Assembly (NCBI GenBank): GCA_964501135.1
Contig: CAZCRI010000004.1
Location: 1-45,237, forward strand
DNA from: an uncultured Candidatus Saccharibacteria bacterium
GTDB taxonomy: Bacteria > Patescibacteriota > CPR2 > UBA1875 > CAIMLA01
Direction of reading: 5' to 3'
Length of the DNA stretch: 45,237 bases
Position 1 is the first letter of the stretch, and every line of letters begins with the position of its first letter. The position numbers and the translations under genes are program-made. Positions 33,137 through 40,783 of this stretch are shown piece by piece. The notes below the pieces were generated by a model that ran no database searches, was not told the origin of the DNA, and saw nothing but the letters and a program-made list of their open reading frames with translations.

Positions 33137-34207
33137 TCAAAGCTTTCCAGTGGACAAAATAACTCCCCCGCCTAATACGACTTCTTTATCGTACAAAACA
33201 GCTGATTGTCCAGGAGTAATGGCTTTTTGTGGTTGCTTGAAAGTTACAATAATATTACTATTCTTTTCGATTCGAGAAATAACACAAGCGACGTCTTCGC
33301 TCGCATAGCGAATTTTGGCCGTACATTCATACGGTAGTTCTGGCTCCGCGCTAATCCAATGAGGTTCAGCGACAACCAAGGTGCTGCCAAACAGTTCCTG
33401 TTCTGATCCAATAATCACCTGATTATTCACGGTATCGAGCCCCACTACATACATGATTGACGGGAATCCCCCACCTAGCCCCTTGCGTTGTCCGATCGTA
33501 TAGTGATGCAAACCATTGTGCCTACCCCACACCTTTCCTGCAGAATCTACAATATCACCAGGGCTATCCTCTATTTTGCCATGCAAGAAGCCATTTACAT
33601 CCGTAGTCACAAAACAAATATCCTGACTTTCTGTCTTCTCTGCGGTCCTGAGCTTGTATTTTCGCGCTAGTTCACGCGTTTCCGGCTTCGTGAGTTCTCC
33701 TATCGGAAATTCCAGATGAGCAAGCTGTTGCTTGGTAATGTTATATAAAAAGTACGACTGATCCTTCTTTTCGTCTAAACCACGAAGCAAATGAAAGCCA
33801 AGTTCATCGTGGACAATCCGTGCGTAGTGACCGGTGACCAGTTTCTCCGCACCTAGTTCCTGAGCTTTGCGCAATAGATGTTCATACTTGATGGTTTGGT
33901 TACAACGAACGCAAGGATTTGGAGTAAGTCCAGCTGCATAACTAGCAACAAAATCGTCGATTACCTCTGCCTGAAATTCTTTCTCCAAATTTATAACGTA
34001 GTGGCGAATTCCAAGCTGCTTACAAACCGCTGCTGCATCCGCAATAGCATCTAGCGAGCAACAGCTCTTATCGCTTCCGCCTGCATCACCGTAACAAAAA
34101 AGCTTCATTGTGACGCCAAAAACCGCTTCGGCACCGTACTTTTCGACCATAAGGGCTGCGGCCACAGAAGAGTCAACCCCACCAGACATTGCCACTGCTA
34201 TCTTCAT
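33137..34207 (-). CDS. mnmA: tRNA 2-thiouridine(34) synthase MnmA
   Basis: AMSGGVDSS PP-loop, SCC, TPNPCVRCN, TGHYAR, KDQSYFL, ESQDICF, YTIGQRKGL, TPGQSAV. Confidence 0.97.
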   Translation of the reverse strand: MKIAVAMSGGVDSSVAAALMVEKYGAEAVFGVTMKLFCYGDAGGSDKSCCSLDAIADAAAVCKQLGIRHYVINLEKEFQAEVIDDFVASYAAGLTPNPCVRCNQTIKYEHLLRKAQELGAEKLVTGHYARIVHDELGFHLLRGLDEKKDQSYFLYNITKQQLAHLEFPIGELTKPETRELARKYKLRTAEKTESQDICFVTTDVNGFLHGKIEDSPGDIVDSAGKVWGRHNGLHHYTIGQRKGLGGGFPSIMYVVGLDTVNNQVIIGSEQELFGSTLVVAEPHWISAEPELPYECTAKIRYASEDVACVISRIEKNSNIIVTFKQPQKAITPGQSAVLYDKEVVLGGGVILSTGKL

Positions 34208-35818: not shown

Positions 35819-36037
35819 CTATTTACCGCAGCCACACTTACAGACACAGTCGTCGCCACAAGTACAAGGTTTACCCTCGCCACAGCCACAATCGCATTCG
35901 CAATCTGGACCACACTTGCATTCTGACTTCTCAGAGTCAGCGCAACCGCAAGAACAATCTGGACCACAAGTGCAAGGTTTGCCTTCGGCACAACCACACT
36001 CGCAAACACATTTGTCTCCGCATTTACAATCAGACAT
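35819..36037 (-). CDS. Metallothionein-like Cys-rich protein (72 aa, 23 Cys)
   Basis: ATG with AAGGAAAGGAG SD, terminator downstream; four CxCGxxCxC(xC)GC units; no His or aromatic residues. Confidence 0.8.
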   Translation of the reverse strand: MSDCKCGDKCVCECGCAEGKPCTCGPDCSCGCADSEKSECKCGPDCECDCGCGEGKPCTCGDDCVCKCGCGK

Positions 36038-36054
36038 ATGGTCTCCTTTCCTTA

Positions 36055-37368
36055 CTAATTAACAATAAAATCACCCGTATACATTCCCATCGAGCAAGAG
36101 AAATGAATCGCTCCGCTCTGTTTCGGCGTAAAATCAAAGGTGTTTACACCCCGCTTCAACAACTGACTAATGTCTAAATCCGGAGACCACAGATAGCTCG
36201 CACACGTAGAAATATCTTTCACGTCAACTACCCAACGAATCGGGACACCCTTCTGTACAATAAATTTATTCGGCGTATAACCATACTGGGTAACCTCCAT
36301 CCTGGCAATCTGGACACCATTCTCCATAGTTACGGCTGCGGCCTTTGGCTGCAGAAAGCCTATAGAAACAGTGCGAATTCCAAACATATTTAAGGCATAA
36401 ACCCCCTCTATCAGGGCGAACATAATTACTACAACCCCAATAATCTGAAAAACCTTCTTCATCGACTGACTTCGAATAAAGGAAACTAGCCCACCTACCG
36501 CCAGGAGACCCGGTGTGGTACCGAGCGCAAATGCCGCCATCAAGAGCCCTCCCTGCAGGAATCCTCCCGAAGCTACAGCGGTAACCTGTACCGCCTGAGT
36601 AAAACCACAGGGCAAAAAGAAGCTGAGTACACCCAGAGTGACCGCACCCCCATGAGTATATTTAGTGTTTAGATACCGTGTGACCTTAGACGCCCCATTG
36701 GGAAGAGTAACTCGAAAGCCAGCGATACGTGGTGATAGCCCGCTAAGGTCTATCCCGATAAGTAGCATCATAACCGCTGCCATCAAAATGAGCAGCCCAT
36801 TTACATACGGACTGATAGTGATAGAACCACCGAGGACTCCAAGCAAACCACCCAAAACAAAGAACCCACCTACCCGGCCGACATTAAAAAATATGTTTGG
36901 TATGAATGCCCCTATTCCCTGGATTGTAGAGTAATCCTCTCGATATTTGGCAGTAAAGGTCATTACCATCCCACCGACCAGAGCCATACAAGTAGAAACA
37001 CCCGCAACTAGTCCCAGGGTCAAGGATCCCCAAACGCCTATGGCAGTAATATTTATCCCTGGCAATGCCCCACTTACAAATATCAGGCTATACACAATCA
37101 ACACTAATATAGCCGTGAGGACTGCCCGAAGCCATAATCCGATGTCTTTTGAATACAATAATGGTCTTTGATTGGTAACCTGGTAGCCCAAATCCACAAT
37201 CTCTGCCTGTACCATGGCGCTATCAAATTCGCCCCAGACACTTAGTTCACTCTTTCGAGTACTTGCAGTCACCTTCTCAACGCCAGGAACCTTGGAAATA
37301 CGTTCTTCTAGCAGTACTTCACAGGCACGACAGTGCATCCCACCTATTTGCAAGGTAGTTTTGGTCAT
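36055..37368 (-). CDS. HMA + DsbD_2/TauE-like membrane domain + cupredoxin-like fusion protein
   Basis: N-terminal GMHCRAC metal-binding loop; TM domain with STCMALVGG and LPCGF; C-terminal GY.PN.F.V.KG.P.RW...C...FSCSMGMYTG. Confidence 0.88.
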   Translation of the reverse strand: MTKTTLQIGGMHCRACEVLLEERISKVPGVEKVTASTRKSELSVWGEFDSAMVQAEIVDLGYQVTNQRPLLYSKDIGLWLRAVLTAILVLIVYSLIFVSGALPGINITAIGVWGSLTLGLVAGVSTCMALVGGMVMTFTAKYREDYSTIQGIGAFIPNIFFNVGRVGGFFVLGGLLGVLGGSITISPYVNGLLILMAAVMMLLIGIDLSGLSPRIAGFRVTLPNGASKVTRYLNTKYTHGGAVTLGVLSFFLPCGFTQAVQVTAVASGGFLQGGLLMAAFALGTTPGLLAVGGLVSFIRSQSMKKVFQIIGVVVIMFALIEGVYALNMFGIRTVSIGFLQPKAAAVTMENGVQIARMEVTQYGYTPNKFIVQKGVPIRWVVDVKDISTCASYLWSPDLDISQLLKRGVNTFDFTPKQSGAIHFSCSMGMYTGDFIVN

Positions 37369-37635
37369 TTAGCCACGCCTCTTGAAGGCTTCCATTACTT
37401 CCTTGGCAGCTTCGTTTCCCTTGCCTTCCTTGATTTTCTGCACGACACAGCATTGCATATGGTCCCCCAGGACTGCCTCATCCAATTTCTTAAGAGCACT
37501 CTGTACTGCATATGACTGATTTAGTATGTCTATACAATATTCATCGTTCTCTATCATTGAAACCACCTTCTTCAGGTGACCCTCAATGATCTTTGCTCGG
37601 TGCAGTATATCTTTTTTGTTTTCTTTCTTAGTCAT
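37369..37635 (-). CDS. csoR: CsoR/RcnR-family metal-sensing repressor
   Basis: RAKIIEGHL, YCIDILNQ..AVQSAL, HMQCC (x-C-H-C ligand set); ATG 37635 with AAGGAAGG. Confidence 0.9.
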   Translation of the reverse strand: MTKKENKKDILHRAKIIEGHLKKVVSMIENDEYCIDILNQSYAVQSALKKLDEAVLGDHMQCCVVQKIKEGKGNEAAKEVMEAFKRRG

Positions 37636-37665
37636 ATTTCCTTCCTTGTTGAAAATCTTACTGGT

Positions 37666-37733
37666 CCCTATCCCCCGGAGGGGGTGTAATATAGACATTT
37701 TATTATCCCCTATCCATTACGTCAAGGGGATAA
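37666..37733 (-). promoter_or_regulatory. csoR promoter with C/G-tract operator-like sites
   Basis: TTGACG(37725-20)-17-TAAAAT(37702-697); TATCCCCC-GGA-GGGGGTGTA at 37669..37688; TTATCCCCT/AGGGGATAA inverted repeat at 37703..37733. Confidence 0.7.
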
Positions 37734-37742
37734 TTATAAAAC

Positions 37743-38129
37743 CTATTTTTTGCTTCGGTAGTCTTTTATCGCTGCCTGCAGTGCATTCGCCGCTAGGTTG
37801 GAACAGTGCATTTTGACTGGCGGTAAACCGCCTAGTGATGCTGCCACCTCGGCATTTGTCACCTTTTCGGCCTCATCAATAGTCATTCCCTTCACCATCT
37901 CGGTGATGCGACTAGATGTCGCCACCGCGGCACCGCAGCCAAAAGTCTGAAATTTCACGTCCTTAATGGTTTCCTTTCCGTCTACGAGCTCCACATCAAG
38001 GTAGATTTTCATAATGTCACCACAAGTTGGATTCCCAGTCTCACCCACTCCGTTTGCATCCTTTAGTATCCCCACATTACGCGGGTTCATGAAGTGATCC
38101 ATTACTTCTTTTGTATACAAATCTGCCAT
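37743..38129 (-). CDS. iscU: Fe-S cluster scaffold IscU/NifU-N
   Basis: HFMNPRNVG, NPTCGD, FGCGAAVA, LPPVKMHC. Confidence 0.95.
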   Translation of the reverse strand: MADLYTKEVMDHFMNPRNVGILKDANGVGETGNPTCGDIMKIYLDVELVDGKETIKDVKFQTFGCGAAVATSSRITEMVKGMTIDEAEKVTNAEVAASLGGLPPVKMHCSNLAANALQAAIKDYRSKK

Positions 38130-38458
38130 TATTTTTCTCCTTTTTCAATTTTTGTTTCTAGCTCATTCATAGTTTTTATAAACTCATTTTCTATATCAAT
38201 ACTCAACTCGTCCGCGATTACGAGAACTGTCCATAGTATGTCAGAAAGTTCATGGGCCAATTCTGAGTCTATATTTGTCCCTTTATACTTTCTGGTGCCT
38301 GCCTTTGCCATTACTAGCTTCATAAAGTCACCAACGTCTCCCGCCATTCCCTGGCTGCGTTCTACAAAAGTCCAAGGCTTTCCGCTACTTTCGATTTCTA
38401 GAGGTCTATATAAATTTTGGATTTCTATCGCCCGATCGCTTAGTTCCTTGAATTCCAC
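38129..38458 (-). CDS. MazG-like all-alpha NTP pyrophosphohydrolase
   Basis: GDVGDF...ELAHELSDILW..LVIAD.L.ID.E..F acidic helical motif. Confidence 0.75.
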   Translation of the reverse strand: MEFKELSDRAIEIQNLYRPLEIESSGKPWTFVERSQGMAGDVGDFMKLVMAKAGTRKYKGTNIDSELAHELSDILWTVLVIADELSIDIENEFIKTMNELETKIEKGEK

Positions 38459-38459
38459 G

Positions 38460-38819
38460 TCAGTCTCCTATTCTCTTTATACTACTTATTGTTACTAGAA
38501 TTGCCCCTTTGGCCGGGAAACCTGCATGGATTTCTTGGACCATGTCATAATATTTACCCACCGTTTGATATTCTGCCTTACCGGTAATCTTGTAGCCAAA
38601 ACATTCCTTCTCCCATTCCGGGTTCCAAACGACCATCGACACTTTGCCGTTCTTATTAATGTTTTCCCTGGTTTTTGTTAGGTAGTTATCTCCGATAAGC
38701 AATTTCTCATCGACAATCTTGACGTCAGCAACAACCGCCACATCCGGCTCGGTAAATGAGCTTGTCGATATCGCAACTGGATTATTCTCGATTAGCTTTT
38801 TGGCCTCTGTAGAAATCAT
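38460..38819 (-). CDS. Pyridoxamine 5'-phosphate oxidase-like FMN-binding split-barrel protein
   Basis: PVAIST...P.VAV, LLIGDNYL.KTRENI.KN.KVSM, GYKITG.AEY, PAKGAILV. Confidence 0.8.
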   Translation of the reverse strand: MISTEAKKLIENNPVAISTSSFTEPDVAVVADVKIVDEKLLIGDNYLTKTRENINKNGKVSMVVWNPEWEKECFGYKITGKAEYQTVGKYYDMVQEIHAGFPAKGAILVTISSIKRIGD

Positions 38820-40015
38820 CGCACTGGACTCATATCTCTTAGTTTTTTGACAATTCCTGGCAAGTGCTTCATTAGTTCATCTACGTCCTCTTTACGATTC
38901 ATCTTGCCAAGAGAAAACCGAATTGCTCCGTGAGCATCAATATCGGCAAATCCCATTGCCTTAGTCACGTGTGATGGCTCTAAACTACCAGAAGTACAAG
39001 CCGAACCCGAGGAAGCCGCAATCCCAAGCATGTCGAGATTGATCAGGATTGATTCACCTTCGATGTGCTTAAAGAGGAATGCTGCAATATGCGGGAGACG
39101 ATTCTCTGCCCTAACAGGACCTATGAGCTCTACATCTGGAATCTCGGAAGTAATCTTGCTCACCACATATTCTCGAATCTCTTCGGTATGTTTTCGGTTA
39201 TTTTCCCGTTCTGCGGCCGACAATTTCATTGCCGCTGCCATTCCTACTATATAAGGCACGTTCTCGGTCCCGGCCCTCTGATTTCGTTCCTGGGCGCCAC
39301 CTTGTTGCTGCGGCGTAAACTTTGTCCCCCGCTTTACATAAAGTAATCCGACCCCCTTGGGACCATAAAATTTATGCCCGGTAAGACTCAGCATGTCGAC
39401 ACCAAGTTTCTCAACATCGATATCGATATATTGGAATGCCTGGACGGCGTCGGTATGAAAAACGATCTTTAGAGCATTTTCATTCTTCTTTCGCTCTTCA
39501 TTAGCCACTTGGACCACATTGGCAATCTCCGCAATTGGCTCCACAGCTCCCATCTCGTTGTTGCCATACATAACCGATACCAGTGCCGTATTGTCGCGGA
39601 TAGCTTCATGAACATCCTTCGGATCTACTAAACCCTCTCGATTCACTGGCAGGTAAGTAACTTCCACGCCATAGGACTTCTGCAAATATTTTGCGCTATC
39701 CAAAACACAGTGATGCTCTACGGAGCTTACAATGATGTGAGGTGTCGCCTGAAGAATATTAGCAGCAGACTGGCACACCCCTTTCAGCGCAAGATTGTTT
39801 GATTCGGTAGCACCACTTGTAAAGATGACTTCTGAAGGCTTGGCGCCTATCAACGTAGCAATTATTTCCCTAGATTCATTTACGGCGTCCTTGGCATCTC
39901 GGCCCACGGTGTAAATACTCGAAGGATTACCAAATCGCTCCGAAAAAAAAGGTATCATCGCATTAAGAACTGCTTTATCCACCGGTGTTGTGGCTGCATG
40001 ATCAAAGTAAATCAT
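38816..40015 (-). CDS. iscS: Cysteine desulfurase IscS/NifS (group I)
   Basis: YFDHAAT, GNPSS, FTSGATE, HTDAVQ, GHKFYGPKG (PLP Lys), RAGTEN, SSGSACTSG; ATG 40015 overlaps the upstream TAA. Confidence 0.96.
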   Translation of the reverse strand: MIYFDHAATTPVDKAVLNAMIPFFSERFGNPSSIYTVGRDAKDAVNESREIIATLIGAKPSEVIFTSGATESNNLALKGVCQSAANILQATPHIIVSSVEHHCVLDSAKYLQKSYGVEVTYLPVNREGLVDPKDVHEAIRDNTALVSVMYGNNEMGAVEPIAEIANVVQVANEERKKNENALKIVFHTDAVQAFQYIDIDVEKLGVDMLSLTGHKFYGPKGVGLLYVKRGTKFTPQQQGGAQERNQRAGTENVPYIVGMAAAMKLSAAERENNRKHTEEIREYVVSKITSEIPDVELIGPVRAENRLPHIAAFLFKHIEGESILINLDMLGIAASSGSACTSGSLEPSHVTKAMGFADIDAHGAIRFSLGKMNRKEDVDELMKHLPGIVKKLRDMSPVR

Positions 40016-40233
40016 TACATTAGCTCCTTTTTCACGGTAGAAATACACGACTTGCAGGCGTTTACCTGCGCTCGCTCCTGATTCTCAATCTTTTTGTAGT
40101 CCTCCCAGGAGATCAGGACCCCTACTGGGTCAGAGTAGCGCAAAATTACGGTACCGGTACCGCTCTTTAGACCGCTCAATATCTTCGAGGCATTATTGGC
40201 CAGCTCTGCCGTGGTGATAAACTTTTCCTTCAT
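40015..40233 (-). CDS. Phd/YefM-fold protein with C-terminal CxxC, no cognate toxin
   Basis: FITTAELANNASKIL...VILRYSDPVGVLISWEDY matches the Phd beta-alpha-beta-beta pattern; CKSC tail; GGGAG SD. Confidence 0.7.
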   Translation of the reverse strand: MKEKFITTAELANNASKILSGLKSGTGTVILRYSDPVGVLISWEDYKKIENQERAQVNACKSCISTVKKELM

Positions 40234-40244
40234 ACATCTCCCAT

Positions 40245-40295
40245 AAAAAATGTTACCCTACTTCCAGGGTAACATTGACGGTAACATTGTGTCAA
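40245..40295 (-). promoter_or_regulatory. Promoter/operator (and possible terminator) ahead of the Phd-iscS operon
   Basis: TTGACA at 40295-90, TGTTACCCT extended -10; 11-bp inverted repeat 40249..40276; GGTAACATTG direct repeat at 40268 and 40280. Confidence 0.65.
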
Positions 40296-40300
40296 GATAT

Positions 40301-40783
40301 TTACGGTATTGTTGTTAGGTCCTTACTACACCAACCTGTCTTGCCGCTATAAGTGACCTTGAGCCAGCCGGATTTCTCTTCTTCGACGGTTAGTTTTGTT
40401 TTATCAGGAATGATTATTAATACAGCTGCAGTAGTCGCCGCTGTTTGGCGCAGGTTCAGCCCTCCTTCGGAATTTACATAGACACTCTTTGGAGTGACCG
40501 TCACAGCCTCCGTGGTCTCTGCGGATTCCTTGGTTTCCGCTACTATCGAACCCTCGATTTTTTCTTCCGCCTTTATCTTGGTATCACAGCTGTAAACCCG
40601 GTATCCGGTATATGCAACACCGCCTAGAATTACCAAAACAACCCCATAAATAAATACCGTCACCCAGAGATTTCTCTTTGGCTCGTCTAGAGTAATCGTA
40701 TCCGATGGCTTTTCGGCAATCAGCTCTTCTTCTGGTATCGCTACCATAAAGTCTTCGAGGGTCTTTTTGCGTTTTGCATCCAT
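40301..40783 (-). CDS. Membrane-anchored bacterial SH3-domain protein
   Basis: TM helix at ~40-60; V...GLNLRQ.A...A..L..IP....L.V.EE..GWLKV.Y.G.TGW. Confidence 0.85.
   Translation of the reverse strand: MDAKRKKTLEDFMVAIPEEELIAEKPSDTITLDEPKRNLWVTVFIYGVVLVILGGVAYTGYRVYSCDTKIKAEEKIEGSIVAETKESAETTEAVTVTPKSVYVNSEGGLNLRQTAATTAAVLIIIPDKTKLTVEEEKSGWLKVTYSGKTGWCSKDLTTIP

Follow-up and report, generated by a model that had tools for sequence, protein, structure and literature searches.

Within a 45,237-nt stretch of DNA from an uncultured Candidatus Saccharibacteria bacterium (positions 1 to 45,237 of contig CAZCRI010000004.1, hereafter the window), nearly all genes lie on the minus strand. Among them is a compact operon whose first gene encodes a 72-residue protein related to Phd/YefM antitoxins, followed by genes whose products assemble iron-sulfur (Fe-S) clusters. 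The small protein is a candidate autorepressor of this operon, and its two cysteines form a CxxC motif that may report on Fe-S status. Genes were assigned with the help of a protein-domain scan of 26 open reading frames (ORFs) of the 45-kb window against Pfam, and the features of the locus are as follows.

40783..40301, minus strand: SH3-domain membrane protein, the co-directional upstream neighbor
40295..40290, minus strand: −35 box, TTGACA
40288..40280, minus strand: upstream direct half-site AATGTTACC, lying after the −35 box and before the −10 element, with a spacing of 12 bp to the next copy
40276..40249: 28-bp palindrome AATGTTACCCT-GGAAGT-AGGGTAACATT, the putative operator, with arms at 40249-40259 and 40266-40276
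40242..40238, minus strand: ribosome-binding site of the 72-residue ORF, GGGAG
40233..40015, minus strand: regulator gene (72-residue ORF), proposed autorepressor and sensor of the operon
40015..38816, minus strand: NifS-type (class I) cysteine desulfurase/class-V aminotransferase (Pfam Aminotran_5, 8e-84)
38819..38460, minus strand: accessory gene of the PNPOx-like, flavin-binding split-barrel type (Pfam PNPOx_N, 1.7e-6; score 28.9 bits, cutoff 28.1)
38458..38129, minus strand: MazG-like (nucleoside triphosphate (NTP) pyrophosphohydrolase-like) accessory gene (Pfam MazG, 0.0019, sub-threshold)
38129..37743, minus strand: NifU/IscU U-type Fe-S scaffold, the last gene of the operon (Pfam NifU_N, 4e-48)

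The operon pairs a class I pyridoxal phosphate-dependent cysteine desulfurase with a U-type scaffold that has three conserved cysteines, the combination expected of NIF-like or minimal (MIS-type) systems. The desulfurase translation carries the motifs SLTGHK and SSGSACTS, and its top NCBIfam match is TIGR03402 (FeS_nifS) at 489 bits, which is under the equivalog cutoff of that model. The scaffold exceeds the cutoff of TIGR03419 (NifU_clost; 192.8 versus 187.9 bits). HscAB, Fdx and IscA are missing from the operon, whose further genes are only the PNPOx-like and MazG-like ones. Judged by these sequence features, the assembly system is a minimal two-component system of the NifS/NifU type and not ISC. 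An earlier interpretation of the same DNA made from the letters alone (the sequence-only reading) had called the operon iscS...iscU. A desulfurase and a scaffold are present as it stated, but the ISC assignment does not stand, and because the scaffold scores above the TIGR03419 cutoff, nifS...nifU is the slightly better label. The accessory genes vary among relatives (numbered L001, L002 and so on): the PNPOx-like gene is found in only some of them, and the MazG-like gene occurs in L007 but is missing in L001, the closest relative.

The TAA stop codon of the regulator gene (40017..40015) overlaps the ATG start codon of nifS (40015..40013) as TAATG, an overlap that the sequence-only reading had also recognized. 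The same reading saw neither an adjacent RelE, Doc or VapC toxin nor an Rrf2 gene. The first of these points holds beyond the window: the neighbors of the 72-residue ORF are the SH3-domain membrane protein and NifS, with no RelE, Doc or PIN toxin gene adjoining, and no toxin gene was found in any relative locus compared (genome, distant and metagenome sets). The second holds for the window, where no Rrf2 or SufR-like gene occurs among the 26 ORFs scanned against Pfam. The 72-residue protein itself has no Rrf2 match in Pfam or NCBIfam.

Several lines of evidence assign the 72-residue protein to the Phd/YefM fold. The Pfam model PhdYeFM_antitox (PF02604) matches residues 4-54 with an E value of 4.2e-5 and a score of 23.7 bits, below the gathering score of 29.8, and TIGR01552 scores 15.8 against a cutoff of 20.8. 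A PF02604 match is precomputed for most relatives, and neither Pfam nor NCBIfam has a model dedicated to the CxxC family. An AlphaFold2 (AF2) model built from an 87-sequence multiple alignment has a mean predicted local distance difference test (pLDDT) score of 92.4 and a beta-alpha-alpha-beta-beta-alpha topology (b1, residues 3-7; a1, 8-13; a2, 15-22; b2, 27-32; b3, 35-40; and a long helix a3, 43-71). When this model was compared with the PDB by Foldseek, nearly all of the first 47 matches were Phd/YefM-type antitoxins (Phd, YefM, RelB, VapB46 and PfiA), with a probability of 1.0, TM scores up to 0.85 and a root-mean-square deviation of ~1.5 Å, and these matches include operator-bound Phd (4zm2). 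Alignment of the family profile to a generic Phd profile by hhalign gave 98.5% with an E value of 3e-15, covering residues 1-55 only, and placed the invariant R32, in the b2-b3 hairpin, on the conserved arginine of the TRhGKP motif of the Phd family. Together, the structure model and the profile comparison show a predicted Phd/YefM DNA-binding and dimerization fold, as the sequence-only reading had supposed for this ORF.

Three other attempts were set aside. An AF2 model from a 38-sequence, family-only alignment was discarded (pLDDT 73, with no beta-strands in the N-terminal half), and a family-only profile search of PDB sequences reached just an E value of 0.24 to 3dbo and was not used. A broader profile, A5, matched PDB Phd-family chains with E values of 2.6e-10 to 1e-4. 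Because A5 contains generic Phd sequences, it was not relied on, and the fold assignment rests on hhalign and Foldseek instead.

The homology to Phd stops at residue 55. The last 17 residues form a family-specific CKxC tail within the predicted long helix, and the sole cysteines of the protein, which has no histidine, lie there as C60-K-S-C63 (nucleotides 40056..40045), the CKSC motif already pointed out in the sequence-only reading. The 72-residue protein has no extended C-terminal toxin-neutralizing segment. In place of the toxin-binding tail stands a short helical segment that bears an invariant CxxC.

A word-indexed database search returned more than 120 clusters of proteins of ~72 residues at 56-93% identity, and conservation on this scale indicates that the gene is not a chance ORF. 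Many of the clusters are annotated as "Phd/YefM family antitoxin" and come from Patescibacteria or WS5. In the family alignment (A1) C60, K61 and C63 are invariant, as is an RYS-PVGVL segment, and a wider alignment (A2) likewise shows R-Y-S-x-P and CxxC as invariant. A hidden Markov model (HMM) search of 1.84 billion representatives gave 49 matches at E ≤ 1e-3, in which five core representatives above 94 bits are followed by a gap down to ~60 bits. Most members of a second tier, at 25-45% identity, keep both the R-Y-S-x-P core and the C-terminal CxxC, and a few of the weakest HMM matches are without any cysteine. One database protein of 218 residues (P0123) consists of the CxxC regulator fused to a Nudix domain.

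The nearest relative, L001, from a metagenome-assembled genome (MAG) designated "Patescibacteria group bacterium", is 96% identical in the small protein and 100% identical in NifU. In loci where the flanking genes share 30-40% identity, conservation of the regulator is close to that of NifS and NifU (58-71%). By these comparisons the regulator appears to be under strong purifying selection comparable to that on NifS and NifU, a pattern that is unlike that of fast-evolving antitoxins.

The gene neighborhood was compared across 87 related loci that represent three sequence tiers, 25-96% identity and two flanking syntenies. The CxxC is kept in all 28 genome loci and in all 56 metagenome loci. A scan of the 28 species-representative genomes found nifS after the regulator in 27 of 27 assessable cases (in one, the contig ends), and a contig look-up of seven distant CxxC members found nifS following in all seven, with a 4-nt overlap, and then NifU_N. 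The 56 metagenome loci were retrieved with a peptide pattern around RYSxP that demanded neither the cysteines nor nifS; that scan used the sub-alignment A3, alignment A2 being too diverse, and nifS follows in 52 of the 52 loci with sufficient downstream sequence. The order regulator-nifS-...-nifU is seen in 87 of 87 assessable loci. The regulator stop and nifS start overlap or are separated by no more than 14 nt in 17 of the 27 genome loci, and one or two small genes lie between them in another 7. These inserted genes appear from their sequences, rather than from a profile test, to be MazG-like, Nudix or four-helix-bundle genes, and none is a toxin gene.

The flanking genes fall into two unrelated syntenies, namely MetRS..TatD and L9/CTP synthase/L27/methyltransferase..PrsW. 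The latter belongs to distant members (L033, L035, L036 and L037), whose neighbors (L9, CTP synthase, L27, methyltransferase and PrsW) are entirely different. That the same cassette sits between different flanks indicates that the conserved unit is the three-gene cassette and not a broad synteny. As a control, the three nearest Phd relatives without cysteines were inspected, and none of the three is near nifS: a PIN toxin follows P0150, and P0134 and P0145 lie in phage-like contexts (Amidase_2; ERF and WhiB). The contrast of 87/87 with 0/3 indicates that the CxxC tracks with linkage to nifS, a check on homologues that the sequence-only reading had named and whose outcome favors it. The regulator gene invariably opens the cassette, ordered regulator-nifS-(accessory)-nifU, and most loci couple its translation to that of nifS.

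The insertions into the cassette vary. Seven loci of a set that includes L003-L007, L022, L028 and L038 carry MazG-like, Nudix or four-helix-bundle genes before nifS, L038 has SfLAP and rhodanese genes between nifS and nifU, and an NTP-pyrophosphatase theme recurs among the inserted genes. In one distant clade (L029 and L031), a divergent HTH_17/MerR-like gene of 167-170 residues stands immediately upstream of the cassette and is a possible second regulator.

These data bear directly on the possibility that the protein, an ordinary type II antitoxin with a toxin gene at another site or only recently lost, stands beside nifS by chance. The databases do call these proteins Phd/YefM antitoxins, and the fold is the antitoxin fold. 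Against this stand the linkage to nifS in 87 of 87 loci through three sequence tiers and two syntenies, the lack of a toxin in any locus compared, a sequence conservation that is very high for an antitoxin, and a tail that is too short and is taken up by the CxxC. We regard this explanation as scarcely credible, and the nifS linkage together with the comparative data effectively refutes it.

A comparison with Phd of phage P1 and YefM/Axe (PF02604) leads to the same point. The 72-residue protein resembles them in its N-terminal dimeric DNA-binding fold, in retaining the conserved arginine of the b2-b3 hairpin (R32 here), and in its position as first gene of an operon with a stop codon that overlaps the next start. 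It differs from them in that no toxin partner is present in the 87 loci, that a tail of ~17 residues with an invariant CxxC takes the place of the toxin-neutralizing C-terminal region, that the genes presumed to be regulated are housekeeping genes of Fe-S assembly, that purifying selection appears strong, and that the window protein falls under the Pfam gathering threshold. The protein belongs to the Phd/YefM fold superfamily but fails the features of a functional antitoxin, having neither a toxin nor a neutralizing tail.

The sequence-only reading had also called attention to repeats upstream of the gene. These repeats prove to be part of a conserved element embedded in the promoter. The 28-bp palindrome, which can also be written AAWGTTACCCTA-N4-TAGGGTAACWTT, lies 15 nt before the ATG, and its arms are 100% complementary. 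Its GTTACC-N10-GGTAAC core is the sole perfect site in the 45-kb window. Exactly one perfect site is also found in 26 of the 28 relative genome loci, always 5′ of the regulator gene, whereas the remaining two loci each carry a site with one mismatch. Neither GTTACC nor GGTAAC varies in 29 of 29 loci of the window clade, where the sequence between and around them is unconserved, and in all 29 a TTGAC(A) stands 15-16 nt upstream of GTTACC. The left arm contains a probable extended −10 element, TGT-TACCCT (40271..40266), 18 nt after the −35 box, and therefore the palindrome covers the −10 element and the start region. The direct half-site AATGTTACC is present in a subset of relatives (e.g., L001, L002, L003, L005 and L009), and its counterpart is the principal element in clade 2, described below.

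In more diverged loci the element changes its sequence and keeps its place. Symmetric variants (GTTATAC..GTATAAC and GTTATAT..ATATAAC) occur in diverged clades, with AAGTTATACTA-CATC-TAGTATAACTT in L036 and a AAATGTTATATTA..TAATATAACATTT-like variant in L037, both at the same promoter position. A large metagenome clade (clade 2) has two direct GTTATAT-type repeats instead, 12 bp apart and beginning 1-4 nt after TTGAC; the strict form of this arrangement is present in 21 of 41 loci, compared with 0.007 expected per 200 nt. A single operator of the form GTTA-N14-TAAC for all clades was rejected, as only 1 of the 41 clade-2 loci matches it. In YefM operators, hexamer motifs recur at a spacing of 12 bp and overlap the promoter (PMC3920265), and the short repeats here, ~12 bp apart and likewise overlapping the promoter, have an architecture that is therefore typical of the family.

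Two further observations concern this region. The center of the palindrome (40260..40265 in the window; loci L001-L028) is conserved yet asymmetric, reading GATG in most lineages and its complement CATC in others, as if the core had been flipped relative to the promoter. In L018, L022 and L025 (also L019 and L021), an extra 126-247 nt separates the operator and promoter from the start codon; the first three share a repeat, GGAACGAAGAATCT...GATCCTTCGTCGTACCTCCTCAGGATGAC, ~100-250 nt upstream of the regulator, which could represent a leader or a small insertion.

A palindrome of this kind might act as RNA rather than as a protein operator, through a hairpin that terminates the upstream gene or causes attenuation of the operon, and the small protein would then not be a transcription factor. 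A terminator scan flags 40276..40249 as a hairpin (12 pairs, of which 4 are G-C, with a 4-nt loop and a T-run), the predicted RNA fold has an energy of −21.6 kcal/mol (z = −2.7), and in the window the co-directional SH3 gene stops 25 nt before the palindrome. Such an explanation does not fit the invariance of GTTACC/GGTAAC in 29 loci, in which deviations at inner positions are mostly uncompensated mismatches, nor the constant spacing of 15-16 nt from TTGAC. It is also at odds with the persistence of the element where the upstream gene is divergent (L033 and L036), with the direct repeats of clade 2, which are unable to form a hairpin, and with the bona fide DNA-binding fold of the protein. We consider a purely RNA-level function very unlikely, and on the strength of the sequence invariance, the TTGAC spacing, the loci with divergent neighbors and the clade-2 repeats it can largely be rejected. 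The palindrome could also serve as a terminator of the SH3 gene, and the invariant sequence, the −35 register, the persistence beside a divergent neighbor and the unpairable direct repeats of clade 2 make this a secondary role at most.

Taken together, the fold and the promoter element argue strongly that the 72-residue protein binds the promoter repeats and autorepresses the regulator-nifS-nifU operon. We consider it probable that an exapted Phd/YefM antitoxin domain serves as a dedicated autorepressor of a minimal nifS-nifU operon in Patescibacteria, with the CxxC reporting Fe-S status. The sequence-only reading had proposed an antitoxin domain repurposed as a redox-, Fe-S- or metal-sensing repressor of Fe-S biogenesis, and the comparisons made here support that proposal. 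The signal that the CxxC is predicted to read would be an Fe-S cluster, the thiol redox state, a persulfide or Zn. In the mechanism that we envisage, the GTTACC-N10-GGTAAC palindrome is very probably occupied by one dimer, while another may take the direct half-site 12 bp upstream. The bound dimer or dimers would then in all likelihood occlude RNA polymerase, and the regulator's own gene, nifS and nifU would be repressed. With two cysteines per chain, two chains may offer four thiolates, and these could ligate an Fe-S cluster made by NifS and NifU, either inside a dimer or between two dimers on the operator. The cluster-loaded form could repress more effectively. A shortage of clusters, or their destruction by oxidants, may cause the apo or oxidized form to leave the operator, and the operon may be induced. 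The cluster would thereby play the corepressor part that the toxin holds in Phd or YefM, following the logic of IscR and SufR.

Several considerations weigh against this interpretation. DNA binding is deduced from the fold and from the co-conservation of the operator, the Pfam score of the window protein itself is sub-threshold, and every locus comes from a MAG of an uncultivated organism or from a metagenome. The promoter scan did not report this promoter, whose proposed −10 element (TACCCT) matches only weakly, and the palindrome has the hairpin score and folding energy described above. Two cysteines per chain and no histidine make a minimal ligand set, and an invariant CxxC would serve equally well in structural Zn binding or in a switch based on thiol/disulfide or persulfide chemistry. 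Finally, the spacing from the Phd core to the CxxC differs by ~12 residues between clades, which argues against a rigid, pre-formed site.

The proposed circuit has counterparts among known regulators. Like IscR, the Rrf2-type [2Fe-2S] repressor of the isc operon, the CxxC regulator is encoded by the first gene, before a desulfurase and a U-type scaffold, and its presumed action is negative feedback by a cysteine-bearing autorepressor whose operator overlaps the promoter. Unlike IscR, it has a Phd/YefM fold rather than the Rrf2 winged helix, two cysteines per chain rather than three cysteines and one histidine, and 72 rather than ~160 residues; the single site in 45 kb suggests that its regulation is local, and its cluster binding is only putative. 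SufR, the [4Fe-4S] suf repressor of cyanobacteria and actinobacteria, represses an Fe-S assembly operon and senses through cysteine-ligated clusters (PMC13066941). It is a dedicated repressor of an Fe-S operon, as is presumed here, but it has another DNA-binding domain of the helix-turn-helix type, four cysteines per subunit and a much larger size, and it regulates SUF rather than NifS/NifU. The CxxC regulator thus resembles IscR and SufR in operon position and presumed logic, without membership in either family. Control beyond an antitoxin's own toxin also has precedent in antitoxins that regulate other genes, such as MqsA (PMC3920265). MqsA differs in that it keeps its toxin MqsR and has an unrelated fold, whereas here there is no toxin and the presumed target is a biosynthetic operon.

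A more specific form of the autorepressor model can be offered tentatively, and we hold it to be a real possibility, if a somewhat doubtful one: the family may constitute a new class of Fe-S-sensing transcription factor on the Phd/YefM fold, a Patescibacterial counterpart of IscR and SufR in which a cluster replaces the toxin as corepressor. The CxxC pairs of two chains, possibly from two operator-bound dimers, would hold a cluster delivered by NifU, and "conditional cooperativity" would be recreated with a cofactor in place of a protein toxin.

The minimal ligand set also fits a protein that is a DNA-binding autorepressor of nifSU and whose CxxC is purely structural. The motifs of two chains would hold a single Zn(II) between them in the manner of a Rad50-type zinc hook, so that a dimer or tetramer is stabilized, nothing is sensed and operon dosage is held by simple negative autoregulation. 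There are just two cysteines per chain and no other obvious ligands, the CxxC lies within a long helix that is predicted with confidence, its invariance would be accounted for by an intermolecular Zn(Cys)4 site, and the operator evidence is equally compatible. Such a clamp leaves unexplained why this Phd variant precedes only Fe-S assembly genes, as it does in 87 of 87 loci. Moreover, ordinary Phd/YefM proteins dimerize through the N-terminal domain without metal, as seen in the PDB structures matched, and a variable linker before the CxxC would be odd for a structural clamp. We rate a purely structural role as unlikely, yet as the foremost competitor to a sensing function for this motif.

The position of the gene admits another explanation, in which NifS (or NifU) is the target of the tail, much as a toxin is that of an antitoxin tail, and the protein either binds and restrains the desulfurase or takes over its persulfide at the CxxC. 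The corepressor would then be the enzyme or the persulfidated tail, in a toxin-antitoxin (TA)-like circuit whose "toxin" is an essential but potentially harmful enzyme. The gene order and the stop/start overlap (TAATG/ATGA) resemble those of antitoxin-toxin operons, and the CxxC is plausible as a persulfide acceptor or sensor. In Phd and YefM, furthermore, the product of the downstream gene is the corepressor (PMC3920265). These similarities have to be set against the 7 of 27 genome loci with small genes intervening, which indicate that strict pairwise coupling is not required, and against a tail that extends only ~17 residues past the core, less than the tails that typically wrap a toxin. Modification of known persulfide sensors leads to derepression, and derepression by persulfide would here mean positive rather than negative feedback. 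On balance, a partnership of the tail with NifS seems rather improbable, and we continue to favor the autorepressor with a sensing CxxC.

Some genes near the operon also relate to sulfur and metals. MnmA, a tRNA 2-thiouridine synthase and a sulfur client of the desulfurase, is encoded a few genes downstream (33137..34207, minus strand), and in L029 and L038 it directly follows nifU. Immediately 3′ of nifU is a separate metal-handling operon (35819..37733, minus strand) with its own promoter, TTGACG-17-TAAAAT (37725..37697), which is flanked by two palindromes, TTATCCCC-N15-GGGGATAA (37733..37703) and CCCCCTCCGGGGG (37685..37673). It encodes a CsoR-type repressor (Trns_repr_metal, 3e-23; likely true start ATG at 37635) and a membrane protein with HMA, DsbD_2 and cupredoxin domains (37368..36055, minus strand), and CsoR and HMA proteins also come after NifU in L005, L010 and L017. 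The last gene of this operon is a second 72-residue ORF (35819..36037, minus strand), which has 24 cysteines in two near-identical repeats (CxCGxxCxCxCGC-EGKPCTCG-DC...). It has a metallothionein-like look and no Pfam match.

The sequence-only reading had taken the regulator to be of a type without a known description. In agreement with this, full-text searches of the literature yielded no account in which a protein with the Phd fold regulates nifS/nifU, or in which Fe-S regulation is described for Patescibacteria, a result that is not proof of absence. A Phd-type autorepressor and a repressor of an Fe-S operon are each of a known kind, and their combination here is most likely an undescribed repressor of nifSU. 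The current annotation "type II toxin-antitoxin system Phd/YefM family antitoxin" inflates TA counts in the candidate phyla radiation and hides the regulator. The candidate system is tractable: the protein has 72 residues, the putative operator has ~28 bp, and the proposed signal can be reconstituted in vitro with two neighboring enzymes. A protein this small with so simple an operator could be useful as a minimal sensor part, provided that cluster or redox sensing is confirmed.

If the proposed function is true, then the family would be a clean case of a TA DNA-binding module recruited to housekeeping control, its tail swapped for a cofactor- or redox-sensing motif. Patescibacteria make up a large share of bacterial diversity and have tiny genomes with few recognizable regulators, and this family provides a concrete candidate for the control of Fe-S assembly among them.

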